Source: Candidatus Omnitrophota bacterium (GTDB taxonomy: Bacteria; Omnitrophota; Gorgyraeia; Pluralincolimonadales; Pluralincolimonadaceae). From it: 64,000 bases of DNA. The stretch covers positions 280,479-344,478 of the forward strand of contig JAQUPL010000001.1 in assembly GCA_028716565.1 (NCBI GenBank). The letters are read 5' to 3'. Made by a program: the position numbers and the translations under genes. Below the pieces are notes generated by a model, which saw only the letters and a list, made by a program, of their open reading frames with translations, did not search any database and had not been told where the DNA came from. This document shows positions 35,890 to 62,415 of the stretch, one piece after another (positions within the stretch are counted from its first letter, which is position 1; each line of letters opens with the position of its first letter).

Positions 35890-35966
<77 letters not shown>

Positions 35967-40609: not shown

Positions 40610-40686
40610 TGGTCGGGGCGGACAGACTTGAACTGTCGACCTCTTCGTCCCGAACGAAGCGCTCTACCAAACTGAGCCACGCCCCG
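40610..40686 (-). tRNA. tRNA-Pro (anticodon CGG), CCA encoded
   Basis: Reverse complement folds as CGGGGCG-TG-GCTC-AGTTTGGT-AGAGC-G-CTTCG-TTCGGGA-CGAAG-AGGTC-GACAG-TTCAAGT-CTGTC-CGCCCCG-A-CCA; the 5' 23 nt overlap the end of the upstream nuclease ORF. Confidence 0.85.
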
Positions 40687-45844: not shown

Positions 45845-46040
45845 AATAAAAAACCCGAAGATCTCTCTTCGGGTCAAAATACGCGATATGGCGGCATAAA
45901 AACCGCTTATCTTCTCCCATCTAGACTTTGACTATTGGCTCCGTGGTTACAACGGATCTGTCCCATCCTTAAAACATATGGATTTGGGACTCGCAGGCTT
46001 TAACTGCCAGTGGGGAATTTCACCCCTCCCGAAGATGTAA
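45845..46040 (-). ncRNA. FMN riboswitch (RFN element) with intrinsic terminator expression platform, leader of ribBA
   Basis: The minus strand reads CTTCGGGAGGGGTGAAATTCCCCACTGGCAGTTAAAGCCTGCGAGTCC...AAGGATGGGACAGATCCGTTGTAACCACGGAGCCAATAGTCAAAGTCTAGATGGGAGAAG, matching conserved RFN blocks. Downstream is a hairpin CCCGAAGA-GAGA-TCTTCGGG followed by TTTTTT (45845-45875). Confidence 0.85.
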
Positions 46041-47384: not shown

Positions 47385-50300
47385 TTAAGCTGTCTTCGCC
47401 TCCAGCTCTTGTGAAAACTTAACCGAAACGATCTTCGATACACCCGACTCCTCCATAGTGATGCCATACATTACGTCGGCCACCGAAATCGTCTTCTTGT
47501 TATGTGTTATTATTATGAACTGCGAAGTCTTCACGAAATCCTTCAGCACTCTGCAGAACCTGTCTATATTAGCCTCGTCGAGCGCCGCGTCCATCTCGTC
47601 CATCACGCAGAACGGGCTGGGTTTCACCTTAAATATGGAGAAGAGGAGCGCTATCGCGGTCATTGAACGCTCGCCTCCGGATAGCAGCGATATGGATTGA
47701 GGCTTCTTACCCGGGGGCCGCGCGATTATCTCGATGCCGCTCTCGAGGATATCCTCCTGGTCGATGAGCAGAAGTTCAGCGTCGCCTCCGCCGAAGAGCA
47801 GCCTGAACATATCCCTGAATTCGGCCTGTATCTTTTGGAATGTCTCGAGGAACATCTCTCGGGTCGTCCTGTTGAGCTTGTTTATCGCCTTATGCAGGTC
47901 ATCTTTAGCCAGGACGAGGTCCTGCTGCTGGGTTGTCAGGAAGTTATACCTCTCCTGCAGTTCCTGGTGCTCTTCTATCGCGACAAGATTTACCGGTCCC
48001 ATGCCTTCTAGCTTGGAGCGCAGGGCCTCCATCTTGTCGTTCATCTCGTCCCAATTTATGTCTTCGGGTATGGCCGCTTGCTCAAGGTCGGTCTCGACTT
48101 TATAGACCTGGATCAGCCTGTCGCGCAGGCTGTTCTTCCTGTAATTGAACTCGGTGGTCTTGACCTCAAGGGTGTGCAGGCGACCGCTCAATTCATTAAA
48201 GGACTTCTGGGCCTCCTTTGACTCGTTCTCTACGCGGGATATGGAATCGCCTGCAGTTTTCCTTTCATCCAATATCTGGCGCGAATCGGATTCCGCCGCT
48301 ATCCTGGCGCTGACGAGCTCCTCATTCCTCTTGGCAAGCTGTTCCGATTCGACCATCAATTCCGAGATCCTCATCTTGGAATCCCTGATCTCTTTCTCTT
48401 TCGAGGCCAGACCGGTTTTTTCGTCTTCGAAAGACCTCGCCATCATGGAGAGGGCGTTGGTTACCGAGACCTCCTTGTCCTTAAGCATGTCCAACTCAGT
48501 CTTGCTCTGGGTTATAAGGACAAGCGTATCCTCCCTCTCTTTCAGCTTGAGGGTTATCGTATCCTGGTTCGACTTGATCGTATCCTGGACTTTCGCGTCT
48601 TCGTCGTCGAGCAAGGCGAGCTCTTTCTTAAGCTCCTCCTCCTTGGTCACGTAGGTGTCTATCTCGGAGTTCACCTCCCCGAGTTCAAGGTTCAACAGCG
48701 ACTCCTCCTCGTTAAGCTTGTTCATGGCTTCTTCAAGGCCGGCTTTTTCGCTGATCTTGTTGGCGTTATCTATCTGAATCTTATGTATATCTTCGGCGAC
48801 AGCCTTCGTCTCTGCCTGGAGCGAGTCCCTGAGTTGCTTCTTCTCCTGGAGGCCGCGTTCGAGGGCCGCGGACTTCGCCTTCAGGTTTTCTATTGTTATC
48901 CTCAATTCCTTTATCTTGGCGTCCCTTCCTATCAGGCCGAAACCTTCCGCCTTCTGGACCTTGCCTCCGGCCGAAAGCCCTTTCTCCACGACTTCGCCGT
49001 TCTTGGTTATGAGCCTGACATGGTCCTGCCGCCCGGCTATCGAGCCGAACGCGGACTCCAGGTCATCCGCAAGGTAAGTATCGCGCAACATGAATTCGAT
49101 GACGCACTTTACGCTTCCTTCCGCCTTTATGTAATTTATGAGGTCTGTCCTTGATCCTGAACGGGAGACGCCTTCCAGCGGTATGAATGTGGCGCGGCCG
49201 AGCGAACCTTCGTCCAGGAATTTGATGAGCCTTTTCGCGGTCTCATTATCTTTGACGATAACGGCCTGTACCAGGTCCCCTAAAGCCGCCTCTATAGCAT
49301 TATCGTAACCCTGGAAAGGTTCGATCAGGTCGGCAACTATGCCCACTACCCCCTGAGATATGGGCGAACCCTTCTCCACTTCTTTCAGGACACTCTTTAC
49401 TCCGAGCGAGAAACCCTCATATTTGGCCTTGAGGTCTTCAAGGAAAGTGAGCCGCGATTGCGCCGCGGTCAATTCCGAACTGAGGCCCTGGAATTCGACC
49501 TCGAGGTTAGTTATCTCTTCACTTAGCGAGCTTAAGTCCCCCTCGGCCTGGGCTTTTTTCCAGTTAAGGTTCTCTATATCCTTGGATATCCTTTCCACGA
49601 AGGCCACCAGCTCACCGAGTTTCTGGCCGGAGGCGGCCCTTTCCTCATCGACCTTCCTCTTCTCTACTTCTATCCTTCTCTGGCGCGCGCCCAGGTGCTG
49701 GGTGTGCGCGACTAATTTCGTCAATTCGTTGCGGGCCTTCGTCTGACCCGCCGCAATATCCACGACGTAGAGTTTCGCCTTTTCTATGTTCTGCTGGCAG
49801 GTCTTTATAGTTTCGGCGATGGCCTCAAGATATTTGGTCTTTTCTTCTATCTCAGACTTCTTATTTTCCTCGTTGCTCCTGAAAAGGCCGGCCTCGGAAT
49901 TCAGGCGGCCTACTTCGTTCTCCAGGCTGGAAAGCCTTTCGCGGTTACCGGCGATATCTTTTTCCAGCCCCGCGATCCTGGAATTGATCTCGTTAGACCT
50001 TTCGGAATTATAGGATATTTTGTCCTTATTCCTTTCGACCTGGCCTTCTATATTGACCGCATTGGCCTTCGCGTCCGACAACCGCTGGTCGACCTTCGCC
50101 AGGTCGTCGCGCAGCGAAGCCAGTTTCGTATCCAGCCCCGAGATGACGGAATTAAGTTCAGACTCCTTCGCCGCCAGGGAATCCCTGTCGGACGATATAC
50201 TGCCTTCTTCCTGCCTTATCTTCTTGAATTCCGCCGCAGCGGTCCATACCTCCATCTCCTTCAGCTTCTCGAAATCTTCCTTATATTTCCTGGCTTTATT

Positions 50301-50927
50301 GGCCTGGCGCTCGATGGAATTTATCTGGCGCTTTACTTCGGTTATCACGTCGCTTACCCTGAGGAGGTTCGCCTCTGTCTGCTCAAGTTTTCTCAAGGCT
50401 TCTTTCTTCTTGGCCTTGTACCTGGTAATGCCGGCGGCCTCCTCGAATACATAGCGCCTCTCTTCCGGGCGCGAGTCTAATAATTCGGCTATCCTGTTCT
50501 GTTCCATGAGGGAATAGGTGGACGTGCCGATGCCGGTCCCCATTAAAAGCTCGTTGATATCTTTTAGCCTTACGGGAGTCTTGTTTATGAAATATTCGCT
50601 CTCTCCTGAACGGAATACTCTCCTTGTTATTGTGACTTCGTCATATTCCGTAGGGAGGATCTTGGGCTGGTTTACTATCGTGAGGGATACTTCCGCGAAT
50701 CCAAGGGCTTCTTTTCCGTCGGTGCCGCTGAAGATGACGTCTTCCATCTTTGTACCGCGGATCTCCCTGGCCGAGGTCTCTCCGAGGACCCACTTGATCG
50801 AGTCAGAGATGTTCGATTTACCGCAGCCGTTAGGGCCGACTATCGCCGTTACTCCCGGCTCAAAATTCAGCTCGGTCTTGTTAGCGAACGACTTGAAGCC
50901 AAAAAGTTCCAGGTTCTTAAAATGCAA
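47385..50927 (-). CDS. smc: Chromosome partition protein Smc
   Basis: 1180 aa; N-terminal Walker A GPNGCGKSN, long coiled coils, hinge, C-terminal LSGGE signature and Walker B. TTG start with a GGGAGGG Shine-Dalgarno. Confidence 0.95.
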   Translation of the reverse strand: MHFKNLELFGFKSFANKTELNFEPGVTAIVGPNGCGKSNISDSIKWVLGETSAREIRGTKMEDVIFSGTDGKEALGFAEVSLTIVNQPKILPTEYDEVTITRRVFRSGESEYFINKTPVRLKDINELLMGTGIGTSTYSLMEQNRIAELLDSRPEERRYVFEEAAGITRYKAKKKEALRKLEQTEANLLRVSDVITEVKRQINSIERQANKARKYKEDFEKLKEMEVWTAAAEFKKIRQEEGSISSDRDSLAAKESELNSVISGLDTKLASLRDDLAKVDQRLSDAKANAVNIEGQVERNKDKISYNSERSNEINSRIAGLEKDIAGNRERLSSLENEVGRLNSEAGLFRSNEENKKSEIEEKTKYLEAIAETIKTCQQNIEKAKLYVVDIAAGQTKARNELTKLVAHTQHLGARQRRIEVEKRKVDEERAASGQKLGELVAFVERISKDIENLNWKKAQAEGDLSSLSEEITNLEVEFQGLSSELTAAQSRLTFLEDLKAKYEGFSLGVKSVLKEVEKGSPISQGVVGIVADLIEPFQGYDNAIEAALGDLVQAVIVKDNETAKRLIKFLDEGSLGRATFIPLEGVSRSGSRTDLINYIKAEGSVKCVIEFMLRDTYLADDLESAFGSIAGRQDHVRLITKNGEVVEKGLSAGGKVQKAEGFGLIGRDAKIKELRITIENLKAKSAALERGLQEKKQLRDSLQAETKAVAEDIHKIQIDNANKISEKAGLEEAMNKLNEEESLLNLELGEVNSEIDTYVTKEEELKKELALLDDEDAKVQDTIKSNQDTITLKLKEREDTLVLITQSKTELDMLKDKEVSVTNALSMMARSFEDEKTGLASKEKEIRDSKMRISELMVESEQLAKRNEELVSARIAAESDSRQILDERKTAGDSISRVENESKEAQKSFNELSGRLHTLEVKTTEFNYRKNSLRDRLIQVYKVETDLEQAAIPEDINWDEMNDKMEALRSKLEGMGPVNLVAIEEHQELQERYNFLTTQQQDLVLAKDDLHKAINKLNRTTREMFLETFQKIQAEFRDMFRLLFGGGDAELLLIDQEDILESGIEIIARPPGKKPQSISLLSGGERSMTAIALLFSIFKVKPSPFCVMDEMDAALDEANIDRFCRVLKDFVKTSQFIIITHNKKTISVADVMYGITMEESGVSKIVSVKFSQELEAKTA

Positions 50928-51059
50928 ATTGGCACCCTCCCTTCCGACAGTTGAACACCCAAAATTGTTCTCGGTCGGGGAGTGCCAAGATTATTTTGTT
51001 ATCTTTGTTCCGAATTGTTAGTTAAAAAATAACATATATCGCGTATTTTGTCAATAGAT

Positions 51060-52844
51060 TTATTCGAACGATAGCGTTATTTTGAAGGCCTTCGTCCCTT
51101 TCCCCAAGTCTTTCGGAAAAGGCGGAAAAGGAGTCGAATCTTTGACGCTTTTTATGGCCAAGTCGGCCAACGCCGGCTCTGCTTTATTTATTATTACCGG
51201 CTCGCCGAAAAGCGAACCGTCATCGAAAAGGGAAAAAGCCACTACGGCGTTTCCGGTAAGCTTCTCCTGCGGCATCGACCGCAGCGCGGTATTAAGGATC
51301 TTCGTCCTCACCATCTGGTTATACAGGTCGAGGTTGACTATCCTGTCCCGGACACTTCCATAGTAGTCGGAATAGGATGAATCTTTCATATTCGGGATCG
51401 GCTGCGACGTATCTCCCGATATAATCGTGGGCGTAAGGAAAATGACCAACTCGGTCTTTTTTGTCTCGTCTACGACATTCCTGAAAGCCGCGCCGAAAAA
51501 GGGAATATCGCCGAGGATCGGAAGCTTGTTGACTGTCCTTATTTTGGTATCTTCTATGAGCCCTCCCATCACGATAGTCACACCGTCCTTTACCACTACG
51601 CTCGTCTCGGCCTCGGAGGTCTTTACTATAGGCACGCCGTCCGGGGACGCCGTGGTCTTGATCCTGCTGCCGACCGAACTGACCACAGGCCTTATCTTCA
51701 TCGATACATAGCCGTCTTTGTTCACGGACGGGGTCACGTAAAGCTGTATACCGACATCTACGAAATTTACCGACTCCGCGGTGGTTACCGCTCCGGCAGC
51801 CGGCGTCGTGGTAGTACCGGTAATATAGGCCTCTTTCGTGCCCACCATTATCTTTGCCTCCTGGCCGTCGAGCGCGGTAATGCGCGGGCTGGAGATGATC
51901 TTGGTATTCCCTACCAACTTAAGGGCCTGGATGACTGAATTGAAGGTATTGCCGTCCCCGAAGCCCGTGCTTATCGTCAAGGTGCCGCCTGAGGTCAGGT
52001 TGGCGGTAAGCTTCTGGTCGACAGTGACTTTCTTTAAGATCGTCTGCCAATCTATCCCGGTGGTCAACTTGTCATCTAACTCCACCTGGACTATCTTGGC
52101 ATCGATGAGGACTTGCCGGGTCTTTTCATCAAAAGCATTTATTATCCTCTCGATGTCCGCCACCTTCCCGGGCAGGTCGGTCACAACCACGGTATTCGTG
52201 CGTTCGTCAAACCGGACCGAACCCAGTCCTTTCGTGATCATATCCTGTATCTTGGGGTTCAATTTATCGCTCTTAGCGTAATCCAGCGTGAAGACCTTCG
52301 TGACCGTAGGGGAATCGAGCGAGGCGACCATCTCCTTCATCTGCTCGAGCCTTCCGGCGCTATCCATCAATATAAGGGAGTTCGAACCTTCATCCACTAT
52401 GACCCTCCCTATGGTCGTCTTGACCTGCGTGACGGCTTTAGCCACTTCTACCGCCTTCGCGTAATTAAGCTTGATAGTGACCAATTCTTTCTTATCCTTG
52501 AAATGCTCTCCGTACATCGCCTCGTATTCCCGGCCGGTCATGACGTTCACGATATCATTGCGCACGTCGTAGGCCAGGTCGTTCGAGAGGAGTATTATCT
52601 CGAAGGCGTCCCAGACATCGACATCTTTCAGGAAGATAGTGACCTTGCCGGTCACGCTCTTCGACGCGATGATGTTCATGCCGGTCCTCTGCGATATTAT
52701 CTTAAGGGTGTCGATTATGTCTATCCCCTTCAGGTCGAGCGTGATCTTCTGCGCGGAGATAGGGGACTGGGCGAAGGAACCGGCCGCGAAGGAGATGAAA
52801 ATAAAGCATGCCAGAAACCCCGTGAGATACCTTGAAAACTTCAT
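51060..52844 (-). CDS. Secretin (GspD/PilQ family) with a C-terminal TonB-C-like extension
   Basis: Signal peptide, N0/N1-like domains, secretin core (VLIDAKIVQVELDDK...GGLIEDTKIRTVNKLPILGDIPFFGAAF). The extra roughly 80 C-terminal aa match the TonB_C pattern (G.AVVAFSLFDDGSL...V...A.P.LADLAIKSV...FPPFP). Confidence 0.8.
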   Translation of the reverse strand: MKFSRYLTGFLACFIFISFAAGSFAQSPISAQKITLDLKGIDIIDTLKIISQRTGMNIIASKSVTGKVTIFLKDVDVWDAFEIILLSNDLAYDVRNDIVNVMTGREYEAMYGEHFKDKKELVTIKLNYAKAVEVAKAVTQVKTTIGRVIVDEGSNSLILMDSAGRLEQMKEMVASLDSPTVTKVFTLDYAKSDKLNPKIQDMITKGLGSVRFDERTNTVVVTDLPGKVADIERIINAFDEKTRQVLIDAKIVQVELDDKLTTGIDWQTILKKVTVDQKLTANLTSGGTLTISTGFGDGNTFNSVIQALKLVGNTKIISSPRITALDGQEAKIMVGTKEAYITGTTTTPAAGAVTTAESVNFVDVGIQLYVTPSVNKDGYVSMKIRPVVSSVGSRIKTTASPDGVPIVKTSEAETSVVVKDGVTIVMGGLIEDTKIRTVNKLPILGDIPFFGAAFRNVVDETKKTELVIFLTPTIISGDTSQPIPNMKDSSYSDYYGSVRDRIVNLDLYNQMVRTKILNTALRSMPQEKLTGNAVVAFSLFDDGSLFGEPVIINKAEPALADLAIKSVKDSTPFPPFPKDLGKGTKAFKITLSFE

Positions 52845-52871
52845 ATTGACCCTGTCCATGGCATTCTCCTC

Positions 52872-53546
52872 TTATAAGGTAAGTTCGAGCACTTCACCGT
52901 TTATCGACAAAATTACCTTGTCCGACTGTATATCCTCAACCCTTATATTGTCCAACGAATCGCCCTTGTAAAGGAAATATGATTTCTTGTTCTTCCCGTC
53001 CTCCAGGATCACCTGGGGTTTATCACCGGCTATTATCCCCTTCAGCGTAAAATCCTTTAACTTGTCGAAGGAGGCCTGGGCAGGCCTTGCCGCGGGAGCG
53101 GCCTGGACCGGGGAGGCCTTAAAAAGATCTTTCGACGCCAGCAGCGCCGGATTATCCTGGATCTCAACGGATACGGAAGATGGATCTGCCTGGACCGGGG
53201 AGGCAGATCCTATTTGCGGTTCCTGGCGCACGGCTGCCCCCTTGGCGGGCTCGGGTATATAGGCCGGACGTTTCAGGTTGAAACTTATGACGTCGATCAA
53301 AAGGACGGCGGCGATGACAATAAGGACGGTTATCAGGGTTATGTTTATAAATTTGACGTGATCTCCGCTTTTAAGCTGCGGTGGCGCAGTCCTGCGGTCC
53401 TGACCGGCAGGAGCCGGACCGGCCTCACGCTCGCCCGGGACGGAACTCTCCCTCTCCTGGAGCGGAGCGGACCTATTCTTAGGTTTCTTTTCGCCGCGGA
53501 TGAGCCTCAAAAGTTTTTCTTCCGGGCTTGTGAATTCCTCGGGCAT
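52872..53546 (-). CDS. Secretin-interacting inner-membrane protein, PilP/GspC-like
   Basis: Likely start MPEEFTSPEEK. Cytoplasmic N-terminus, one TM helix, Pro/Ala-rich linker, and a C-terminal beta-domain pattern (L.G.I.G....VILEDG...Y.LYKGD.L....V.DI....V.L) as in PilP / the GspC HR domain. Lies directly upstream of the secretin. Confidence 0.5.
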   Translation of the reverse strand: MPEEFTSPEEKLLRLIRGEKKPKNRSAPLQERESSVPGEREAGPAPAGQDRRTAPPQLKSGDHVKFINITLITVLIVIAAVLLIDVISFNLKRPAYIPEPAKGAAVRQEPQIGSASPVQADPSSVSVEIQDNPALLASKDLFKASPVQAAPAARPAQASFDKLKDFTLKGIIAGDKPQVILEDGKNKKSYFLYKGDSLDNIRVEDIQSDKVILSINGEVLELTL

Positions 53547-54361
53547 TAACTTACCTCCCTGCCTATCACAGCCTGGACGATTTCGCGGTCTATGGCGGTC
53601 CTCTCGTCCATTATGACGGTCTCCACGCAATCGTGGCAGAGCAAGGCTATCTTCCTCGGATATCCCTGCGTATGTTCATATATATATTTTATCGCGTCGT
53701 CCGTAAAGAGCGGGGCCTGGGCCGAATAACCCGCCTGTTTCAGCCTGAACTCTATCATCTGTTTTGTCTCAGCCTCGTCCAGGGGATTTATCAGGTATTT
53801 AAGGGCGATCCTGTCCATGAAATTCTTTATCTTCCTTATCCTGGGCAGCAGCTCGACCTGGCCCAGTATGACAAGCTGCAGGAGCTTGTATTCATTGGTC
53901 TCGTAGTTCAATAATATCCTAAGGAGTTCGAGTTGGTTGGCGTCAAGCTTTTGGCCTTCGTCTATGAGGAGGATTATCGTCTTGTTCTCGTCGACGCCTT
54001 TTTGGAAGAGGTATTTTTCTATGGCATCCTTGAATTCAAGAGTCGACCTGAATGCCGGTTTGATCCCGAACATCTTCGCGAGGTTTGCGAGGAATTGGAA
54101 TTCCGTCTTATAACTGGGGTCGAGGATCATGTGGAATATGAAATTATCGTCCCCGTGGAATGATTGCAACAATGTCCGCGAGAGCGTCGTCTTTCCCGTC
54201 CCTACGTCGCCCAGGACCACGCTCAGGCCGCGCCTCAACCTTATCGTGATCTCCAGCCTGTTGAGGGCCGATTCATGCGATTGGGAACGGAAGAAAAAGG
54301 CGGGGTCCGGACTTGTCGAAAACGGTTCTTTCTCAAGGGCAAGCGCTTTATAATAGCTCAA
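53546..54361 (-). CDS. exeA: AAA+ ATPase ExeA/GspA (MshM-like)
   Basis: 271 aa; Walker A GDVGTGKTT, Walker B LLIDEGQ; ExeA-family length and layout. Confidence 0.7.
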   Translation of the reverse strand: MSYYKALALEKEPFSTSPDPAFFFRSQSHESALNRLEITIRLRRGLSVVLGDVGTGKTTLSRTLLQSFHGDDNFIFHMILDPSYKTEFQFLANLAKMFGIKPAFRSTLEFKDAIEKYLFQKGVDENKTIILLIDEGQKLDANQLELLRILLNYETNEYKLLQLVILGQVELLPRIRKIKNFMDRIALKYLINPLDEAETKQMIEFRLKQAGYSAQAPLFTDDAIKYIYEHTQGYPRKIALLCHDCVETVIMDERTAIDREIVQAVIGREVS

Positions 54362-54603
54362 CTTGAGGCCCTTCCGGGTTCCAGTAGTTCGAGGATCTTC
54401 TTTATCGGGTATTTATCCCGTCTTAAACTTATTATCCTGTTCAGCCTGTTTATAGTAGATTCATCAAAATATCTGAAATTCGTCTCAGGGCTCCTGCCTA
54501 CCTCAGAGATAAGCCTTATTTTGAGATAATATTTCACCGTTTCTATGGAAAGTCCGGTCAATCTTGCTAAATCTTTAACTAAATATAGGTTATGAGCGCT
54601 CAT
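54358..54603 (-). CDS. Small MerR-family HTH protein (DNA-binding domain only)
   Basis: 81 aa; LYLVKDLARLTGLSIETVKYYLKIRLI matches the MerR HTH and wing; no effector domain. Confidence 0.6.
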   Translation of the reverse strand: MSAHNLYLVKDLARLTGLSIETVKYYLKIRLISEVGRSPETNFRYFDESTINRLNRIISLRRDKYPIKKILELLEPGRASS

Positions 54604-54626
54604 CTTCTACTCCCTACTCAGGGAGC

Positions 54627-54655
54627 AGTATATAAAATCATACTTATCTTGTCAA
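54627..54655 (-). promoter_or_regulatory. Candidate internal promoter TTGACA-17-TATACT upstream of the merR-like gene, followed by palindrome CTCCCTGAGTAGGGAG that includes the SD
   Basis: -35 is the complement of 54650-54655; -10 is the complement of 54627-54632; the 6-bp-arm inverted repeat at 54610-54625 overlaps the AGGGAG Shine-Dalgarno. Confidence 0.4.
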
Positions 54656-54674
54656 GTATTTTTTGAAGAAAGGG

Positions 54675-55208
54675 TTAATGGATAGCTATTTTGGAAATTA
54701 CGATACCGCACCTGAGGATGTTAGAGCGGGCCTGTTTCGGATTCAGCGATAATCTATCGATAGCCAGCAGATGAGCGGAATTCTGCACTTTTCGCATAAA
54801 ATCTGATATCTGTATCATGTCCCCTTCCAGCTCGAGGCCGGCGTAAAACTTCCTGTAAAGGCTGAATTTTTTCGTGGGCAGGGGTTTTATCTCGTTTATG
54901 TGGACTCCGGTCGTATTCGCGAGGGATTCGATCTCGGTGAGGAATTTAGCCATCTCCTCTTCCGCCGAACCGGCCATCCTGAGGGCCGACGCGGCTTTTT
55001 CATAATCGCCGGTTATCGGCCCTGTCCTGCCGATGAGGCGCTCGCTCTTTTCCAGTTTGAGGGTGTCCGCGGCTATCTCATCGTTAAGCCGCTTCCATTT
55101 TGTCGAGACCGGTTTTAAGATGAACGCCTGGGCGGCCCATGCGACTATCACCGCCAACGTAAGATAAAAAAGCTTGCTCTCCCGGCCGCTGAGGTTTAAT
55201 AATGTCAT
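54675..55208 (-). CDS. PilO / GspM-like bitopic inner-membrane assembly protein
   Basis: 177 aa; short cytoplasmic N-terminus, TM helix, coiled coil, and a C-terminal ferredoxin-like region, as in PilO/GspM. Confidence 0.55.
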   Translation of the reverse strand: MTLLNLSGRESKLFYLTLAVIVAWAAQAFILKPVSTKWKRLNDEIAADTLKLEKSERLIGRTGPITGDYEKAASALRMAGSAEEEMAKFLTEIESLANTTGVHINEIKPLPTKKFSLYRKFYAGLELEGDMIQISDFMRKVQNSAHLLAIDRLSLNPKQARSNILRCGIVISKIAIH

Positions 55209-56638
55209 TTGGCCGCCTTTCCGGATAACGGGCAGGATATCTCGAAATCCACGAATTCGGCTTGCGGGGTCTTTCTCTTTGCGGCGTATTTCACTTCGAC
55301 GTTCTCAAAATACGGCGAGTCGTCGAGCAGCTTGACGAACCTGAACACCTCGGACAAAGCTGATGACGTCCCCTTTATGTCCACCCTCCCCTCATCGTAT
55401 TTATACAGCGCGAGGTTTATCGAAGGGGGCGCGATCCTGTAGAATTCGTTCAATATCAAAAGCGGCCGCGCCCTTTGTGATGATTCGGACCTGACGATAT
55501 CGGCTAACTCCTTCTTCCTGCCTATCTCCTGCGCCGACGGGGCCGTCTTCTTCAGCCTCAGTTCGAGCACTCTCAATAATTCTTCCTTTTGGTGCAGTTT
55601 GTTCACGACCACGAGAGATAGAAGTATAAGGACAGCCGCGGCCAGCGAAAGGGAGACCATAGCCTCGTTCCTCCTTATCTTCACCGACCTGGCAACCTTA
55701 AATCTCCCGGGCAACAGGTCTACCCTGTCCGGTCCGGCCGCATTGCCTATAAGGGAGGCGAACGAACCTGTTGAGGTGAAAGGCCTGGATCTTTCAGGTA
55801 CCCCGGAAGGGAACACCTTGAACGCGTCCCTGAATTCAACCTTTATCCCCATCGCGTTTTCAAGCGATTCCTTGTGCGCTTCCATCCCGGGCAAATAACC
55901 GGTAAAGACAGCCTTTACGGGTTTCAAGGTCAAGGATTCCTTTTCGAATGTCACCAGGGTCCTTGTTATTTCTTCCTTAAGCCTTTCGATGTAATCCGCG
56001 CCCCCGCCGGAGCCGAAAGTGAGTCCGCGTGTATATATTACCTTCTCTTTATCGGCGATCACGATGTCCGTGGCCGACTTATCGCATTCCACGACGATAA
56101 CAGGCGCCGCGCCCGCCCCGGCCATGAAATCCGGGTCCATCCTTAGCCAGTTGAGGATACCGATAGAGCTCAGCGTCACCTTCGAAGGGGAGAATCCGCA
56201 GGACCTCATCACCTCAAGCGGCCTCTCGACCATATCTTTGTGGCAGATGACAAGCATCACCTTCGAATAGCCCTCGGCCGTCGTCTCTATCGGGCTGACG
56301 CCGTATGTTATCTCCTCTTTTGGATAGGGTATCTGTTTTATCGCCTGGAACCCGGCCATCTCTTCTATCTCCGCCGGGTCATGGGACGGAAGGCTCAGCG
56401 TTTTGGTCGTCACGGATTGCCTGGGTATTACGAGGACTGTCTCTTTGGGTTTTATGTTAAAGTTTTTGAGGATCTTGCTTAACGCCTCTGAAGCCGCTTT
56501 GACGTCATTCGACGGCACCGCTTCGCTGACGCAGGCCTCTATCGCCGCGGCCGGGCCGCTCACCGATATCTGGATGACTTTTATCTCAGATTCGCGTATC
56601 TCGATCGCCGTCTTAGTCTTGTCGGTAAATAATCCCAT
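55205..56638 (-). CDS. PilM-PilN fusion protein (GspL-like architecture)
   Basis: 477 aa. An N-terminal actin-like PilM domain is followed by a PilN segment beginning VDLLPGRFKVARSVKIRR, then a TM helix and a periplasmic domain. Confidence 0.65.
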   Translation of the reverse strand: MGLFTDKTKTAIEIRESEIKVIQISVSGPAAAIEACVSEAVPSNDVKAASEALSKILKNFNIKPKETVLVIPRQSVTTKTLSLPSHDPAEIEEMAGFQAIKQIPYPKEEITYGVSPIETTAEGYSKVMLVICHKDMVERPLEVMRSCGFSPSKVTLSSIGILNWLRMDPDFMAGAGAAPVIVVECDKSATDIVIADKEKVIYTRGLTFGSGGGADYIERLKEEITRTLVTFEKESLTLKPVKAVFTGYLPGMEAHKESLENAMGIKVEFRDAFKVFPSGVPERSRPFTSTGSFASLIGNAAGPDRVDLLPGRFKVARSVKIRRNEAMVSLSLAAAVLILLSLVVVNKLHQKEELLRVLELRLKKTAPSAQEIGRKKELADIVRSESSQRARPLLILNEFYRIAPPSINLALYKYDEGRVDIKGTSSALSEVFRFVKLLDDSPYFENVEVKYAAKRKTPQAEFVDFEISCPLSGKAAK

Positions 56639-56641
56639 CTC

Positions 56642-57613
56642 CTATTCCTCGTTCCAGTAGAGAACGCTTCCGCCCGTTACCGAGATGACACAGGTAACGG
56701 TTTTTACCGCCCTGCCGCCCGAAGCGTAACCTTTCGATATCACCCTGTAATAATTGGAACCGCAAGATACGAGCGCCTTGTTCGCTTCCGTCAGCGACGT
56801 AATATTCGCGCCTGACAGGAAATCGATGAAGTCATTCTTGTCGACGAAATGCGTATTATCCGGCGTATCCGGGCCGATCCTGGCGGCAATTATAGTCTCG
56901 GCCTCGGGTTGCGAAAAACCCAGCGCCATAAGTACAGGCAACGGGGCTGTATTCACATTTATCTGGCAGCCCGTGCCGGTTATCGGGTATACAGTGATAT
57001 ATCCCTTTATCTTATCGAAGAGCTCGCGGTTTACGCCCTTGACCAACAAGACCTCATCTATCGAGTCAAAAGGGAGATCCTTTTTCTTGTATCCCTCTCC
57101 AGTGTAATCATATTCATTATATTCCTGGGAACCGTCCTTGCGGATATCGTCTTCGTCGCGCCAATCTTCTATACTAGCCGCGATCTCGCCGGCGTCTCCT
57201 GTAAGGTCAAAATACTCGATAAGCCGCTTGATGACATCCCCGGGCGCGTTATTGATATTTATACGCGCTTCCTCGTCCTGGACGCCGTAAAAGACCCGTT
57301 TATCGGAAGAGGGATAACTTACGGTAAAGGTACCGGCCTCCCCTATCTTGATATCCTTAAAAAGCGGGTTGGCTTCCTCATCATTGCATGACCATTGCTC
57401 GTTCAAGGTATCCATAGTGTGGTTCTTCTTGCTGAGGATGACGGCCGCCGCGCGTTCTACACCGGCCTCGGAAAGGTACAGGGCAGCCGCGCTGTCCCTG
57501 TTAAAACCGGTAAGTTTCAGTTCAAGCCCCATCCTGCCGCCTATCCCAATTGAGAGTATAGCCAAAATCGCCAAAATCCACAAGGTTATAATAAGGATGG
57601 CGCCCTTCTTCAA
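56642..57613 (-). CDS. gspK: Minor pseudopilin GspK-like
   Basis: 323 aa; N-terminal hydrophobic ILIITLWILAILAIL, characteristic INVNTAP motif; size typical of GspK. Confidence 0.7.
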   Translation of the reverse strand: MKKGAILIITLWILAILAILSIGIGGRMGLELKLTGFNRDSAAALYLSEAGVERAAAVILSKKNHTMDTLNEQWSCNDEEANPLFKDIKIGEAGTFTVSYPSSDKRVFYGVQDEEARININNAPGDVIKRLIEYFDLTGDAGEIAASIEDWRDEDDIRKDGSQEYNEYDYTGEGYKKKDLPFDSIDEVLLVKGVNRELFDKIKGYITVYPITGTGCQINVNTAPLPVLMALGFSQPEAETIIAARIGPDTPDNTHFVDKNDFIDFLSGANITSLTEANKALVSCGSNYYRVISKGYASGGRAVKTVTCVISVTGGSVLYWNEE

Positions 57614-58200
57614 GGAATAATCACCTCTTCGTCTTTCAGTATTCCTGTAGGTATCAATACCGTCCGGGTGACCGTAAGCGGTTCCGCCGAACCATCGGGG
57701 GTATACGTCAATAACACCTTGACGCCGAACGGAACTTCTTTATAATCTTCCTGCCAGGAATCACCCCATACAGGTCTTCCGTCTTTTTTGTATAAATACT
57801 GGAATTTAATGACTGACATCCCGGACGCCAACCGGGACCTCACCCCGGGGCCGCCCGAGGCGTTATCCTTATAGGTCTGCAATACCCTGTATACCGCTTT
57901 CTCCCCTTCGTCAAACTCGTATGTCACCCTGAATAGGCCGTTAACCGCCCTGCAGAAAGAGAGGGAATCCGCGCTCCCGGAAAATACTATCACCTGAGAA
58001 TTGACGGCGTTCTTTAATTCGCGCGAGAGCATGCCCAAAAGATACCGGGCCTCCTGCCTGCTGCGGTAACTCCCCTCACCCTTCTGCCAGGCGCAGATGC
58101 CCACATTAAAGGAAAGATATATCGAGATAGAGACGATGGAGAATATCAGCATCGCTATCAATAATTCGATAAATGTGAACCCTGCGCGGCACTTTCTCAT
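57610..58200 (-). CDS. gspJ: Minor pseudopilin GspJ-like (prepilin N-terminus)
   Basis: 196 aa; prepilin-type cleavage/methylation motif AGFTFIELLIAM. Confidence 0.6.
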   Translation of the reverse strand: MRKCRAGFTFIELLIAMLIFSIVSISIYLSFNVGICAWQKGEGSYRSRQEARYLLGMLSRELKNAVNSQVIVFSGSADSLSFCRAVNGLFRVTYEFDEGEKAVYRVLQTYKDNASGGPGVRSRLASGMSVIKFQYLYKKDGRPVWGDSWQEDYKEVPFGVKVLLTYTPDGSAEPLTVTRTVLIPTGILKDEEVIIP

Positions 58201-58595
58201 TCTACGCCTGCCTGGCCCTTAAGGTAAGTGCCTATTTCGATCTTCTCGTTGCGTTCCTTATTCGTCCAGGATATTATGGTAATGACCTGGTTAAGAGTAT
58301 CCCCGTCACTTATCTTCGTTATCTTTGTTTCCAGGCTGTACGGCGTCCCGGATATCTGGGTGGATGACTCGGACGCGGCGACACCCCCGGCCAATTCCTC
58401 CTCTATCTCGAGGCCGGCAATCTTGTCCTGCACCAAGAGCGACGCCTTAAAATACTCCTGCGCTATCTTCGAGGCGCGCAGGGATGATGTGAAAGAGCGC
58501 AATATGACCGCCAGGCCTATCGCGATGACGGCGATGCTCGCCACCACCTCGAGGAGGAGGTATCCCTTCCTATTCCGTCTGCTTGACATTGACAT
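58197..58595 (-). CDS. gspI: Minor pseudopilin GspI-like
   Basis: 132 aa; variant prepilin motif KGYLLLEVV (G-Y-L-L-L-E with Glu at +5). Confidence 0.55.
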   Translation of the reverse strand: MSMSSRRNRKGYLLLEVVASIAVIAIGLAVILRSFTSSLRASKIAQEYFKASLLVQDKIAGLEIEEELAGGVAASESSTQISGTPYSLETKITKISDGDTLNQVITIISWTNKERNEKIEIGTYLKGQAGVE

Positions 58596-59055
58596 AGCCT
58601 GTCCCCGGGTCTACCGATACCGAATATTTCCCGCCGTATTTCCCCTTGATCTCGAAATCAGCCCTGTCCGACGTCCCGTCCGGATAGAAGACTATCTTGG
58701 CCTTGCCCTCCTTCAGGTCAATCAGGACGGAATCGGGTATCGACTTCACCTTCCCGGTCACCCACTGGTCGACGTCAACCCCGTAAGGGTCTCGGAATAC
58801 GAGGTGGTCTTCTGTCAGGACGCGTTTCTGCGGCAGGTCGAAATCCACGCTCGCCTCGGCGCTACCGCTTATCGCCTTCGCCTGGGCATACATCGCCAGG
58901 GAAGTAAGATCAGAGACGAAATTCTGAAGGACCAGGGAATCGAACGATCTCCTGAACTGCGGGACCGCGACTGCCGCCAGAATAGCCAGGAGCGTTATAA
59001 TGAATATCAATTCTATGAACGTAAACCCTCGGTGGCAGCGGCGTTGAAACGCCAT
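58570..59055 (-). CDS. gspH: Pseudopilin GspH-like
   Basis: 161 aa; prepilin motif RGFTFIELIFIITLLAILAAVAVP. Confidence 0.6.
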   Translation of the reverse strand: MAFQRRCHRGFTFIELIFIITLLAILAAVAVPQFRRSFDSLVLQNFVSDLTSLAMYAQAKAISGSAEASVDFDLPQKRVLTEDHLVFRDPYGVDVDQWVTGKVKSIPDSVLIDLKEGKAKIVFYPDGTSDRADFEIKGKYGGKYSVSVDPGTGYVNVKQTE

Positions 59056-59065
59056 GGATAATTGC

Positions 59066-59473
59066 CTACTGCTGCCCGGAGACGGGTTGTTTATTGGAGA
59101 TGGTGTCGCTGCCCGCGACGCCGCTCCTGCCGTAACTCATCAAGTCGTAATCTTTCTTGTCGGTGCTAGGCTTATAGACGTAGTCGCGGCCCCACGGGTC
59201 AACCGGCCTCTTCTTAAGATATGGGCCGTTCCACGATTTCAGGTCTCCCGGTTTGACGAGCAGGTCGTCTAATTTATCGGGATATTGCCCGTTATCAAGT
59301 TCATACATGTCCAGGGCCGTGGCTATACTAGTATTTATATCCGACATGGCGACCTGCCTCCTGGCGTCCTCCGACCTCCCGACGAACCTCGGCAATACCA
59401 TCGACGCCAAGATCCCGATTATCACCACTACAAGCAATATCTCTACGAAAGTGAACCCGCTCCTCGCGCGCAT
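59066..59473 (-). CDS. gspG: Major pseudopilin GspG
   Basis: 135 aa; SGFTFVEILLVVVIIGILA and the GspG-specific DPWG..Y.Y...G....YDL.SYG.DG motif. Confidence 0.85.
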   Translation of the reverse strand: MRARSGFTFVEILLVVVIIGILASMVLPRFVGRSEDARRQVAMSDINTSIATALDMYELDNGQYPDKLDDLLVKPGDLKSWNGPYLKKRPVDPWGRDYVYKPSTDKKDYDLMSYGRSGVAGSDTISNKQPVSGQQ

Positions 59474-59483
59474 GATCCCTCCT

Positions 59484-60692
59484 TTATTTTACCATAAGGT
59501 TCAATTGGAATATCGGCAGGAGCATCGCGACCACTATAAAAGCCACGACCGCTCCCATGCCCAGTATCATAAGAGGCTCTATAAGCGACGTCATTATCTT
59601 AATAAGCCTGTCGGCGTAATGTTCATACGAATCCCCGATGCGGTAAAGCGAAACCTCGAGCGAGCCGCCCTCCTCCCCGACGGATATCATGTTCTTCACG
59701 AAGGCCGGGAAGTGCGGGCTGTTCTTTATCGCCCCGGAGAATGAGAGGCCATCTTTTATCGACTTCCCTATCCTCTCGAACTCTTGCCTCAGCACCTCGT
59801 TGGTCGCTGTCGCGGATATTACCTCGATAGAATGGAGTATGGGGACACCGTTATCGAGAAGAGTGGCGAGCGATTTGCAGAGCCTTCCCACCTCGACCTT
59901 TTTGAGGAAATCCCCGAGAAGCGGCAGGCCCAGTAAAAACCTGTCGACCTGTGTCTTTCCCTGCTTTGTGGAGTTTACCCTTACGACCAGGAAAAATATG
60001 ATAGCGGCAGCCAGGACCATCAGCCACCAGAATTGAGCGAAGAAATCGCTTATCCCTACGAGTATCCTTGTGGGGAGCGGAAGGGACTGCCCGAATTCGG
60101 AAAATATCACCGTCAACCGCGGGATGACGAACGACAGGAGGACAAAGACCGTCAAGACACCGACCGAGAGGACGAGCGCCGGATAGGCCATGGCAGCCTG
60201 GATCTTGCTCTTTACGTCCTCCTCTTTCTCGTAATGGTCGGAGAGCCTCTTGAGGATCTTCTCCAACACGCCTCCCACCTCGCCCGCGCTTATCATGCTC
60301 ACGAAAAAATCGGAGAATATCCTGGGATGCTTGGCGAACGCGCCTGAGAGAGAGGCGCCGGCCTTCACTTGGACTATCACATCCTGCAGAGCGGACTTTA
60401 ACGCCTTGTTCTCTATCTGGTCGGATAGGACGCCGAGGGCGTTTATCAGGGTAAGGCCGGAACCCAAAAGGTCGGAGAACTGCTGCGTGAAAACAGCCAT
60501 ATCCCTGGTGCCGACGCGGTTCATGAACGCAAACCCTGCCTCTCCGCCGCGCGCCTCCTGCCTATCCACCCTGAGGGGATACAATCCCATCTGCGATAAT
60601 TTGGAGACGGCTATATATTCGGTGTCGGCCTCTATATAGCCTTCCGCGACGTCGCCGATCCCCTTCTTAGCCCTGTAAAAAAATCTCGCCAA
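59484..60692 (-). CDS. gspF: Inner-membrane platform protein GspF/PilC family
   Basis: 402 aa; two T2SSF repeats with three TM helices. Confidence 0.85.
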   Translation of the reverse strand: MARFFYRAKKGIGDVAEGYIEADTEYIAVSKLSQMGLYPLRVDRQEARGGEAGFAFMNRVGTRDMAVFTQQFSDLLGSGLTLINALGVLSDQIENKALKSALQDVIVQVKAGASLSGAFAKHPRIFSDFFVSMISAGEVGGVLEKILKRLSDHYEKEEDVKSKIQAAMAYPALVLSVGVLTVFVLLSFVIPRLTVIFSEFGQSLPLPTRILVGISDFFAQFWWLMVLAAAIIFFLVVRVNSTKQGKTQVDRFLLGLPLLGDFLKKVEVGRLCKSLATLLDNGVPILHSIEVISATATNEVLRQEFERIGKSIKDGLSFSGAIKNSPHFPAFVKNMISVGEEGGSLEVSLYRIGDSYEHYADRLIKIMTSLIEPLMILGMGAVVAFIVVAMLLPIFQLNLMVK

Positions 60693-60711
60693 TCGAAACT
60701 CCGTCCCCGTG

Positions 60712-62415
60712 TTACATATTCGGGATATCTTCCTTCGGCGTTACCCTCATTACTTCGCCGGCCGTCGTCAAACCCTTTAAGATCTTCTCGATGCCCGCGT
60801 TGCGCAGCGTCCTCATCCCGAGGGCTACGGCCTTTCTTCCTATCTGGTCGGCCGATTTGTGGTTGAGCACCATCTCGCGTATCTCCTCGTTCAATACGAG
60901 GAACTCATGTATGGCGGTCCTTCCGCGGTAGCCGGTAAATTTGCACGCCTCGCATCCTTTCCCCTCGTATATCTCGGCGCCCTTCGGCGCGTCCTTCATG
61001 CCGAGCTCCTGCAGGACCACTTTCGCGTCTTTCGCCGGCCGTTTGCATTTCGGGCAGATAAGGCGGACTAGCCTCTGGGCGATGACGCACTCGACCGACG
61101 AAGCCACGAGATACGGCTCGATGCCCATATCAAGGAGTCGCGTCGTCGCGCCGGCCGCGTCGTTGGTGTGCAAGGTCGAAAAGACGAGATGTCCGGTGAG
61201 GGCTACCCTTATCGCTATCTCCGCGGTCTCGACGTCCCTTATCTCTCCCACCATCATCACGTCCGGGTCGTGCCTGAGCATCGACCTCAGCCCCTTGGCG
61301 AAAGTCAGTTCGACCTTATTATGGACCTGGATCTGCGTGATCCCCTTAAGGTGGTATTCTATAGGGTCTTCGATAGTAAGTATCTTAAGTTCCCTGTTAT
61401 TGATCTTCGATAGGCAGGCGTAAAGCGTCGTCGTCTTCCCTGAACCGGTCGGGCCGGTCAAAAGTATTATGCCGTGCGGCTTTTTTATCATCTCGTTCAG
61501 TATCTTGAGGTCGAAATCGGCCAAGCCAAGGTCCTCAAGGCTGTAAAGCATCTTCGCGAAGAGAAGCCTTATGCCTACGCTTTCGCCGTAAGGCGTCGGC
61601 AATATCGAAACCCTCAGATCGAGGTCCTCCTGGCCTACTTTCACCTTCATCCTGCCGTCCTGGGGCAGGCGGTGTTCGGCGATATTGAGGTTCGACATTA
61701 TCTTGATCCTGGAGATTATCGCGGACTGGAAATACTTGATATTCGGGGGGATCGCGGCGTCGTATAAAACGCCGTCTATCCTGTAGCGGACCTTCAGTTC
61801 GTCCTCGTAAGGCTCTATATGGATGTCGGTCGCCCGGTCGTGGTAGGCCTGCTGGATTATCTGGTTCACGAATTTTATTATAGAGGCGTCCTCGACAAGC
61901 TCCTCGGCCTCCTCGACGGCAAGGGACGGCCCGCCTGAGGCGGCGGTCTCTGCCATGATGCTTTCGATCGTGTCGGCGCCGATGCCGTAATACTTCTTGA
62001 CAGCTTCTATGATATCCTTCTCACCGCCGAGAAGCGGCCTGACTTCGCAGCCTAAAATGAGTTTTATGTCGTCGAGGGTGTGCAGGTCGAGCGGGTCGGT
62101 CACGACTATGGAGAGGATGCCGTCCTTCTCTTCCAGGGGCATCAACTTATAATGGACCGCGAACCTCGCCGGGACTTTCTCCGCTACCGGTTTGGGTATA
62201 TTCCTTTCCTTGAGCTTTACGTAGGGTATGCCGAGCTGCCTGGAGAGGACGGTCAGGACCTTCTCCTCGGCGGCGAAACCGAGGTCGGCGATTATCTGGC
62301 AAATAAATTTCCCGGACTTCTTCTGTTCATTAAGGCACATCTCCAGCTGTTCCGGAGTGATCACCTTATCGATTATCAGCATCTCGCCTATGAGAATGCC
62401 GTCCTTAATAGCCAT
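60712..62415 (-). CDS. gspE: Secretion ATPase GspE (T2SSE_N domain, ATPase, tetracysteine Zn site)
   Basis: 567 aa; N-terminal MshEN/T2SSE_N-like domain, Walker A GPTGSGKTTT, Asp and His boxes, Cys-x2-Cys...Cys-x2-Cys zinc motif. Confidence 0.9.
   Translation of the reverse strand: MAIKDGILIGEMLIIDKVITPEQLEMCLNEQKKSGKFICQIIADLGFAAEEKVLTVLSRQLGIPYVKLKERNIPKPVAEKVPARFAVHYKLMPLEEKDGILSIVVTDPLDLHTLDDIKLILGCEVRPLLGGEKDIIEAVKKYYGIGADTIESIMAETAASGGPSLAVEEAEELVEDASIIKFVNQIIQQAYHDRATDIHIEPYEDELKVRYRIDGVLYDAAIPPNIKYFQSAIISRIKIMSNLNIAEHRLPQDGRMKVKVGQEDLDLRVSILPTPYGESVGIRLLFAKMLYSLEDLGLADFDLKILNEMIKKPHGIILLTGPTGSGKTTTLYACLSKINNRELKILTIEDPIEYHLKGITQIQVHNKVELTFAKGLRSMLRHDPDVMMVGEIRDVETAEIAIRVALTGHLVFSTLHTNDAAGATTRLLDMGIEPYLVASSVECVIAQRLVRLICPKCKRPAKDAKVVLQELGMKDAPKGAEIYEGKGCEACKFTGYRGRTAIHEFLVLNEEIREMVLNHKSADQIGRKAVALGMRTLRNAGIEKILKGLTTAGEVMRVTPKEDIPNM

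Follow-up and report, generated by a model that had tools for sequence, protein, structure and literature searches.

We analyzed a 64-kb stretch of DNA (here called the window) from a Candidatus Omnitrophota metagenome-assembled genome (MAG) and describe a gene cluster at positions 51060 to 62415 whose products point to a type IV filament machine resembling a type II secretion system (T2SS). The initial annotation of this DNA had proposed 13 co-directional genes, and all 13 open reading frames (ORFs) are there, consecutive, on the minus strand and filling that span. Neighbors overlap by 1 to 4 nt or lie 3 to 19 nt apart, the sole exception being a 71-bp gap ahead of a gene for a MerR-like protein. 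Pfam and NCBIfam scans of the 13 ORFs assigned, in order, an assembly ATPase (E), a platform protein (F), a major pseudopilin (G), four minor pseudopilins (H, I, J, and K), a PilM-PilN fusion (MN), a PilO/GspM-like protein (O), the MerR-like protein (MerR), an AAA+ ATPase (AAA), an HR-domain protein (HR), and a secretin (D).

The cluster is present in every Omnitrophota locus that we recovered. An NCBI protein from a Candidatus Omnitrophica MAG matches MN at 100% identity, and a genome scan with an MN profile, which rested on one narrow peptide pattern, returned 18 loci, all of them from Omnitrophota (a few of the records are labeled Planctomycetia). Further loci were taken from metagenome contigs, giving a compared set of L001-L021, L026, and L027, several of which end at a contig edge. 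When the 13 proteins were mapped onto these loci, the order E-F-G-H-I-J-K-MN-O-(MerR)-AAA-HR-D was kept across the set, at MN identities as low as 25 to 30%. The lowest identity across loci is 64% for AAA, 59% for E, 39% for F, 39% for D, and 25% for MN; the AAA ATPase is the most conserved component, and most parts other than AAA and E have minima of 25 to 39%. A search with the AAA ATPase gave 5904 database matches at E ≤ 1e-10, and among the matches listed, relatives had at least 68% identity.

The initial annotation had itself named a way in which its reading could fail, namely that the PilM-PilN fusion and the MerR gene were annotation artifacts arising from frameshifts. The fusion is unbroken in 22/22 fetched loci that span the gene. 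Searched against 1.84 billion cluster representatives, the MN profile had matches of E ≤ 1e-30 in at least 2002 clusters (50% identity), the best 150 of which are, bar one, full-length with one continuous match; for 10 representatives that were looked up, the single name returned was Omnitrophota. In a word-indexed protein database, the same profile found four extra weak matches only, one of which (P0056) lies in a different type IV pilus (T4P)-like cluster. Because more than 20 Omnitrophota loci share this gene order, at MN identities down to 25 to 30%, we reject a frameshift origin for both genes, which are conserved across the phylum.

Motor, filament, and PilM-PilN fusion

The assembly ATPase E is 567 amino acids (aa) long (60712-62415; this and all other genes of the cluster are on the minus strand), matches T2SSE with 452 bits and MshEN with 66 bits, carries the tetracysteine motif, and has no hydrophobic segment by hydropathy. 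Its best-scoring NCBIfam model is GspE (TIGR02533, 609.7 against a cut-off of 630.25), followed by PilB (TIGR02538, 587.6; cut-off, 675), and in a PDB search full-length PilB/PilF reached ~480 bits versus ~390-398 bits for GspE. The N-terminal domain, at residues 1-60 (62236-62415, minus strand), had been taken for a GspE N1 domain specific to T2SSs; it is actually of the generic MshEN type, common to PilB and MshE. This domain passes the NF053729 model for a cyclic di-GMP (c-di-GMP) motif (42.7 > 38). In a comparison by eye with the published motif, both of its "RLG" arginines seem to be replaced (LIG and FIC), which leaves c-di-GMP binding by E uncertain. A gene for a GAF-GGDEF cyclase lies elsewhere in the window, at 17880-19406 (minus strand).

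The platform protein F (402 aa; 59484-60692) is an inner-membrane protein with two copies of T2SSF (215 bits) and hydrophobic stretches that fit three membrane helices; it scores best against GspF (TIGR02120, 401.2; cut-off, 424), with PilC models at ~300. The major pseudopilin G (135 aa; 59066-59473) passes both the GspG equivalog model (TIGR01710, 118.6 > 88.85) and T2SSG (86 > 21), its prepilin leader ends in G|FTFVE, and PilA models match it over the N-terminal helix only. Among E. coli proteins, E, F, and G score higher with GspE, GspF, and GspG than with HofB, HofC, and PpdD. G is thereby borne out as the annotated GspG, E and F carry the domains expected of the annotated GspE and GspF, and the two motifs named in the annotation are there as well, DPWG in G and INVNTAP in K.

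Two loci depart from the usual arrangement at the G position: L027 has a gene for a LacI-family regulator where the major pseudopilin normally sits (L027 3617-4633), and L026 has an ORF without a T2SSG match (L026 4817-5302). The major subunit gene may have been displaced or replaced in some lineages.

Four minor pseudopilins follow G, and their count and order match the GspH-I-J-K set, as the initial annotation had it. The H-like protein (161 aa; 58570-59055) has a prepilin leader (N_methyl, 26.5 bits), keeps its position after G across loci, and matches XpsH/GspH below threshold (E, 3e-7 to 5e-6); the I-like protein (132 aa; 58197-58595) likewise has a prepilin leader, a conserved position, and XpsI/GspI matches below threshold (E, 2e-7 to 6e-6). 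J (196 aa; 57610-58200) passes T2SSJ (29.1 > 28), with N_methyl at 33.6. K (323 aa; 56642-57613) is above the cut-off for both T2SSK_1st (48.4) and T2SSK (34.5), lacks Glu5, and reaches 115 against the GspK model NF037980 (cut-off, 130). A prepilin peptidase gene, reported as missing from the cluster, was found nowhere in the 64-kb window, and prepilin processing must use a peptidase encoded elsewhere. Nor does the window hold a PilT-like retraction ATPase or a second paralog of E, F, or D.

The MN fusion (477 aa; 55205-56638) matches PilM_2 at its N terminus (58.8 > 27) and PilN at its C terminus (40.1 > 22.8). An actin-like cytoplasmic domain (residues 1-301) is followed by the motif VDLLP (306-310), a membrane helix (324-350; the sole one by hydropathy), a long helix, and a periplasmic ferredoxin-like domain (405-471). 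VDLLP, in which L and P are nearly invariant across orthologs, is the counterpart of the PilN-type N-terminal motif (INFLP in E. coli HofN). A PDB sequence search with MN returned solved PilM structures only. When an AlphaFold2 (AF2) model of MN (pLDDT, 85.5) was searched with Foldseek, PilM came first (2.5e-22; target TM-score, 0.6-0.71), then FtsA, with the GspL cytoplasmic domain third (2.2e-10; target TM-score, 0.70).

The initial annotation was right that a single PilM-PilN fusion stands in the place of GspL; its description of this as unusual does not hold, as PulL/GspL is already treated as a PilM-PilN fusion that anchors GspE (PMC10191384, PMC4471445), and such a fusion is what would be expected here. 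Where PilM and PilN are separate proteins, PilN binds PilM through its short cytoplasmic N terminus (PMC4471445). What is unusual in MN, judging from the profile matches, is that both halves can still be recognized as PilM and PilN, i.e., that they are less diverged.

A PilM-PilN fusion (544 aa) was also seen on a metagenome contig with a different T4P-like cluster (L022 4094-12351), where it comes after E, F, and three prepilin genes and where T2SSG/T2SSK matches and an adjacent secretin were not seen, so that at least one further filament system shares the fusion.

The start of the O gene (177 aa; 54675-55208) overlaps the end of the MN gene by 4 bp. As annotated, it encodes a PilO/GspM-like bitopic protein: it has one membrane helix by hydropathy and passes PilO (30.9 > 22), and the GspM models stay below their cut-offs (T2SSM_b, 21.2 against 21.7; NF040576 GspM_XpsM, 43.8 against 60).

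The secretin module and its promoter

The remaining four genes form a second block, MerR-AAA-HR-secretin, in which the MerR gene always comes first. In L001, L002, L012, and L014, 5 to 9 kb of other genes separate O from the MerR gene, and L003 has the E-to-O block alone. Because O and MerR are split in several loci, the MerR gene is not a mid-operon insertion, as the initial annotation had implied, and is instead the head of a separable module; the consensus promoter that the annotation gave it stands, and the gene is conserved. In L001 (10520-16064) and L002 (9207-14751), two genes for TPR proteins, one for an RHS/YD-repeat protein of 1321 aa (DUF6531, RHS_repeat), and then small ORFs lie between the PilO-like gene and the MerR module. 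This RHS insert may be toxin cargo or a substrate inside the secretion locus.

The MerR-like DNA-binding protein (81 aa; 54358-54603) passes MerR_1 (PF13411, 45.6 > 21.6), and in a PDB search its residues 5-75 match MerR-family proteins of solved structure over their N-terminal DNA-binding domains. It consists of the winged helix-turn-helix only, ending at residue 81 with neither a dimerization helix nor an effector domain, and has no hydrophobic segment by hydropathy. Its gene overlaps the start of the AAA gene by 4 nt in the window and in L001.

In the 71-bp gap between O and MerR lies a sigma-70-type promoter, TTGACA-17-TATACT (54627-54655, minus strand), that agrees with the consensus at 11/12 positions. 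Directly after its -10 hexamer comes a 7-4-7 palindrome, gCTCCCT-GAGT-AGGGAGt (54609-54626). The promoter recurs at the same place in 16 loci as TTGACA-17-TAnAyT (mostly TATAyT), and the promoter-palindrome site (listed for L001, L002, L004-L010, L012, L014, L015, L017-L020, and L027) is always just upstream of the MerR-like gene. The palindrome has the consensus ACTCyCT-N4-AGrGAGT, with a variable central 4 nt and arms that co-vary (CTCCCT/AGGGAG versus CTCTCT/AGAGAG). The -10 hexamer abuts it with 0 nt in 15/16 loci and 1 nt in L019. The window has one copy, as does each of 11 loci matching the exact pattern; L019 and L020 have extra copies, two or three. We found no wider palindrome regulon within the window or the fetched loci.

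The palindrome is probably an operator for the MerR-like protein, judging from its placement. Its distance from the promoter is fixed, and its distance from the start codon varies from ~4 to >25 nt, which points to a DNA operator over the transcription start and hence to autorepression. Among fetched loci with a readable O-AAA junction, the palindrome occurs only where the MerR gene is present; in L013 and L021, which have no MerR gene, AAA follows O with little or no intergenic gap. The 17-bp spacer and the position of the palindrome after the -10 hexamer do not fit the classical MerR mechanism, in which a spacer of 19 to 20 bp contains the operator.

The palindrome could instead be an RNA hairpin in the 5′ leader that controls translation or mRNA stability, with the MerR-like protein acting elsewhere. 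The right arm in the window contains the ribosome-binding site, GGGAG, 7 nt before the ATG, and the co-variation of the arms would keep base pairing, including a T-G pair at one locus that would be tolerated in RNA. A normal transcription start, however, would land in the left arm or the loop, making the full hairpin impossible, and L007 has a C-A mismatch. The variable distance to the start codon alongside a fixed distance to the promoter, and the restriction of the palindrome to loci with the MerR gene, also speak against a hairpin. No Rfam family matched at the palindrome, and a known RNA family was rejected as a candidate. We therefore regard a leader hairpin as improbable and favor an operator.

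The closest parallel to the regulator is BldC of Streptomyces (68 residues; PMC5859096), which likewise has a MerR-type winged helix-turn-helix without a coiled-coil dimerization helix or an effector domain. BldC, however, forms cooperative multimers on direct repeats at many promoters (PMC5859096), whereas the candidate site in this cluster is one inverted repeat, at the promoter of the protein itself, and the gene belongs specifically to the secretin module.

The AAA gene encodes a soluble AAA+ ATPase of the GspA/ExeA/MshM family (271 aa; 53546-54361; AAA_22, 68 bits) that matches TIGR03015 over its full length with 184.5 bits (cut-off, 324) and has the Walker A motif GTGKTT and the Walker B motif LIDEGQ. 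Many of its homologs carry the JGI label "general secretion pathway protein A." Of the ExeA (GspA-like ATPase) assigned by the initial annotation, the AAA+ module is present; no membrane helix (by hydropathy) and no peptidoglycan-binding domain were found.

The HR-domain protein, which is GspB/GspC/PilP-like (224 aa; 52872-53546), starts at an ATG at 53546, overlapping the AAA stop codon by 1 nt; a longer, 252-aa ORF with a TTG start is not a real gene. In an alignment of 16 orthologs, a conserved N-terminal peptide on the cytoplasmic side, SPEEKLLRLIRG, precedes a single membrane helix, and the HR domain lies at the C terminus. The protein passes T2SSC (33.4 > 27) and matches the GspC HR domain in the PDB (3oss_C; E, 0.004), in keeping with the annotated PilP/GspC-like protein; T2SSB is below threshold (17.1; cut-off, 28.4). 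The cluster has no second HR protein and no separate GspC, and thus one HR protein may carry both the GspB and the GspC/PilP roles.

GspB is described as a one-helix protein whose HR domain binds the secretin N0 domain, that is usually encoded beside gspA, and that in some bacteria pairs with a GspA minus its periplasmic region (PMC9239104); GspA variants of this kind, without the periplasmic region, are known from Alteromonas and Pseudoalteromonas (PMC9239104, PMC4098917). By analogy, the AAA and HR proteins resemble the GspA/GspB secretin-assembly pair (ExeA/ExeB, OutB; PMC9239104, PMC4098917): an AAA+ gene sits beside a one-helix HR-domain gene and both sit beside the secretin gene, the likeness to GspB being drawn apart from the N-terminal peptide. 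The statement that no recognizable GspB is present is therefore doubtful, as the AAA-HR pair fits the described GspA/GspB (PMC9239104). The pair differs in that the ATPase here lacks any membrane helix or peptidoglycan-binding domain and is the most conserved gene of the whole system, and in that there is no separate GspC. With phmmer, E. coli GspA, GspB, GspC, GspL, GspM, HofM, HofN, HofO, and HofP gave no match to the accessory proteins and are too distant to discriminate.

The secretin D (599 aa; 51060-52859) consists of a signal peptide, an N0/STN domain, two Secretin_N domains (85.3 bits), and a core at residues 313-480 (Secretin, 161.5 bits). Against NCBIfam it scores 263 with the PilQ subfamily (cut-off, 284), 238 with GspD (TIGR02517; cut-off, 351), and 185 with MshL (TIGR02519; cut-off, 250), and its PDB matches to GspD and PilQ are equal (~1e-35). 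Its best E. coli match is HofQ. No AMIN domains were found on it with Pfam.

The initial annotation had given the secretin an extra TonB-C-like domain; the secretin stands, and the tail (residues ~481-599; 51060-51419) is reasonable as remote homology to TonB_C/TonB_2. In the window the match is weak (E, ~2.5e-3; TonB_C, 18.6 with a cut-off of 24.6; TonB_2, 18.4 with a cut-off of 22), while orthologous tails matched both TonB_C and TonB_2 in 9/9 cases (best E, 3.9e-6), and precomputed Pfam annotation places TonB_2 on the L026 and L027 secretins also. A single-sequence AF2 model of the tail, of low confidence (pLDDT, 54), has an alpha-beta-beta-alpha-beta topology, and a fold search with it placed the C-terminal domains of HasB and TonB on top, non-significantly. 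With a profile of the secretin tails, nothing else matched at E ≤ 1 in a set of ORFs intended to contain E. coli TonB (TolA may have been missing from it). Four loci (L014, L015, L017, and L018) have no tail. In L020 the secretin is 779 aa long and carries the tail on a linker of ~150 residues (L020 15650-16189); the visible stretch of this linker, with its many Pro, Lys, Glu, and Val residues, resembles the proline-rich spacer of TonB. In L009 an in-frame stop at ~7350 falls between the secretin core and the TonB_C-like tail; a sequencing error, a pseudogene, and a separately expressed tail are possible.

Downstream of the secretin gene, in the 132-bp gap before an SMC gene (47385-50927), is a strong promoter-like sequence, TTGACA-17-TATTTT with an extended TG (51026-51054, minus strand). 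The secretin-SMC adjacency is conserved in L006 and L010.

Kind of machine

We think it probable, from these domain and motif matches, that the cluster encodes a T2SS-like type IV filament machine that likely serves to secrete folded proteins from the periplasm. Scores above T2SS-specific cut-offs were obtained for G, J, K, and the HR domain. The TXSScan model for T2SSs makes gspC mandatory and asks for at least 4 mandatory and at least 5 total genes (PMC6668835), a quorum that would probably be reached, judging from the Pfam and NCBIfam matches. The mix of parts seen by the initial annotation stands: T2SS-type G, J, K, and HR, with E and F best against GspE/GspF, are combined with PilM, PilN, PilO, and a PilQ-like secretin of type IVa pilus (T4aP) type, and "hybrid" is a fair description of the cluster. 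Denise et al. (2019) derive both T2SSs and MSH pili from T4aP and note atypical T2SSs outside Proteobacteria; a text search of that paper found no mention of Omnitrophica.

Like the proteobacterial T2SS (Gsp/Pul/Eps/Xcp), the cluster has E, F, and G, an H-I-J-K set in the same order, an HR protein and a secretin, and no retraction ATPase. In one polypeptide, as in GspL, it combines an actin-like domain in the cytoplasm with a ferredoxin-like domain in the periplasm, and it has a bitopic partner for this protein, as in GspM. It differs in that C and D come first in Proteobacteria, whereas the secretin and HR protein come last here. The GspL equivalent here scores as PilM and PilN with a full-size PilM-like domain, E has an extra MshEN-type N terminus, the HR protein has no PDZ or coiled-coil domain, and there is no GspN, GspO, or GspS. 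A TonB_C-like tail takes the place of the S domain, and the secretin module has its own small MerR-like regulator.

Several findings count against a T2SS. Only G passes a T2SS equivalog cut-off in NCBIfam; MN has no GspL-family match in Pfam, NCBIfam, or the PDB sequence search, and no GspL- or GspM-specific model is passed. Owing to its N-terminal MshEN domain, E can be aligned with PilB/PilF over its whole length, and of the secretin models that of the PilQ subfamily comes nearest. MSH pili, too, have an ExeA-like ATPase and a fused protein of PilM/PilN type and lack a peptidase gene (PMC6668835, PMC4624765). Deletion of mshM in Vibrio did not reduce pilus production (PMC4624765), so that a role for the ATPase here rests on analogy to ExeA, and no substrate has been linked to the locus.

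The main alternative is a surface type IV pilus, MSH-like or T4aP-like, for attachment to prey, hosts, or surfaces. The alignment of E with PilB/PilF through its MshEN-type N terminus, the passing of the PilM, PilN, and PilO models, and a secretin nearest to PilQ (HofQ among E. coli proteins) would all fit such a pilus. The MSH model requires an MshM/ExeA-like ATPase, a peptidase gene is absent from MSH loci as well (PMC6668835), and MshI has been described as GspL/PilN-like (PMC4624765). Two preprints on Omnitrophota take secretion/pilus loci that lie beside giant genes as evidence in favor of predation, for which adhesion would be important; the loci in those preprints are of the Tad type, with rcpC, Flp pilins, and paralogous GspF-domain genes, and are not this cluster. 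Among the papers searched, none described this Gsp-like cluster or gave secretome data.

The resemblance to the MSH pilus of Vibrio and Shewanella extends to a short ExeA-like ATPase (MshM), a GspL/PilN-like MshI, a PilO-like MshJ, a c-di-GMP-type MshEN domain on the ATPase, the absence of a prepilin peptidase gene from the locus, and the TPR proteins beside the cluster in L001 and L002; the likeness of MshM to ExeA and of MshI to GspL is that given in PMC4624765. The pilins, however, are GspG-H-I-J-K rather than MshA, B, C, D, O, P, and Q, the gene order differs, there is no MshN in the window, and the secretin falls short of the MshL model (185 versus 250). With the T4aP PilM-PilN-PilO-PilP/PilQ set, the cluster shares the passing PilM, PilN, and PilO profiles, the retained PilN-type motif VDLLP, and a secretin nearest to PilQ. 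It differs from that set in that PilM and PilN are one polypeptide, the window has no PilT/PilU and no PilA-type major pilin, the secretin has no AMIN domains, and the HR protein is bitopic rather than a PilP lipoprotein. G, moreover, is short (135 aa) and scores above the cut-off of the GspG equivalog model, and GspH-I-J-K is the pattern of the four minor subunits, including a GspK that lacks Glu5. On balance we consider an adhesive pilus unlikely and favor a T2SS-like secretion machine.

A competence pseudopilus for DNA uptake, suggested by HofQ as the best E. coli match of the secretin, a helix-hairpin-helix segment in K with a weak ComEA-type HHH_3 match, and weak ComGD and ComGE matches for H and I, is very improbable, because the helix-hairpin-helix (175-207) sits inside the T2SSK_1st match (120-210), the Com matches are far under their cut-offs and weaker than or equal to the Gsp matches, and no ComEA, ComEC, or DprA gene was seen in the cluster, the one locus searched for them.

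We conclude that the cluster is not a new type of machine; the kind of system is known, and this variant of it stands out by four unusual accessory features. It is doubtful that the Omnitrophota loci represent an undescribed class of type IV filament machine between T4aP/MSH and the classical T2SS. Such a class would be marked by a fused, undiverged GspL, a soluble GspA-like core ATPase constrained above the motor ATPase, a TonB-like secretin tail, and a MerR-type autorepressor.

A large protein with F5/8 domains encoded elsewhere in the window (11448-14750, minus strand; ~1076-1100 aa) had been put forward as a plausible substrate. It has three F5/8 type C domains, the remaining ~700 residues having no Pfam match, and, provided that the second Met is the start of translation, a Sec signal peptide (MSGKKLGF...SHA|AE). 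Its gene is ~36 kb from the cluster, the sampled genes in between are housekeeping genes (ftsK, ligA, and one for a CCA-adding-type enzyme), and recA and alaS lie on its far side. The protein is presumably exported, yet nothing specific ties it to the machine, and we rejected it as a linked substrate. The window also has an FMN riboswitch (RF00050, 94.4 bits; 45905-46040, minus strand) upstream of a minus-strand ORF at 44592-45791, a tRNA-Arg(CCG) at 35890-35966 (minus strand), and a tRNA-Pro(CGG) at 40610-40686 (minus strand).

Proposed working and meaning

From the gene content, domains, conservation, MN fold, and promoter-palindrome pair, we infer a working model that extends to contacts between the proteins, repression by the MerR-like protein, a role for the tail, and secretion itself. 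The genes would be transcribed as two modules, E-F-G-H-I-J-K-MN-O for the inner-membrane motor and filament and MerR-AAA-HR-secretin for the outer-membrane channel. In the first, hexameric E would dock on the PilM-like cytoplasmic domain of MN, like GspE on GspL, MN and O would pair in the periplasm around F, and F and E would polymerize G beneath a tip of H, I, J, and K. The second would be transcribed from its own strong promoter, which the MerR-like protein probably represses through the palindrome over the transcription start. The probable binding partner of the soluble GspA-like ATPase is the conserved N-terminal peptide that the HR protein exposes to the cytoplasm; in the periplasm, the HR domain would bind the secretin N0 domain and so aid secretin assembly, as in the GspA/GspB role; the HR protein would also tie the channel to the inner membrane, as in the GspC/PilP role. 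The TonB_C-like tail, in place of a pilotin-binding S domain, may fasten the channel to a partner strand or the cell wall. Such a machine would most likely secrete folded proteins from the periplasm.

Omnitrophota are widespread and uncultured, and the cluster is found in every relative recovered. For research on type IV filaments it supplies a natural GspL equivalent still recognizable as PilM and PilN, a system whose best-conserved part is a GspA/MshM-type ATPase that model systems lack or can do without, and a simple, putative promoter-operator-repressor unit. The understanding of how such machines work is unchanged by these findings. If phylogeny placed the system at the base of the T2SS clade, it would show the T2SS as emerging from type IV pili. 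If the cluster did represent an undescribed class, the organelle that these ultra-small and perhaps predatory bacteria mainly use for export or attachment would have been identified.

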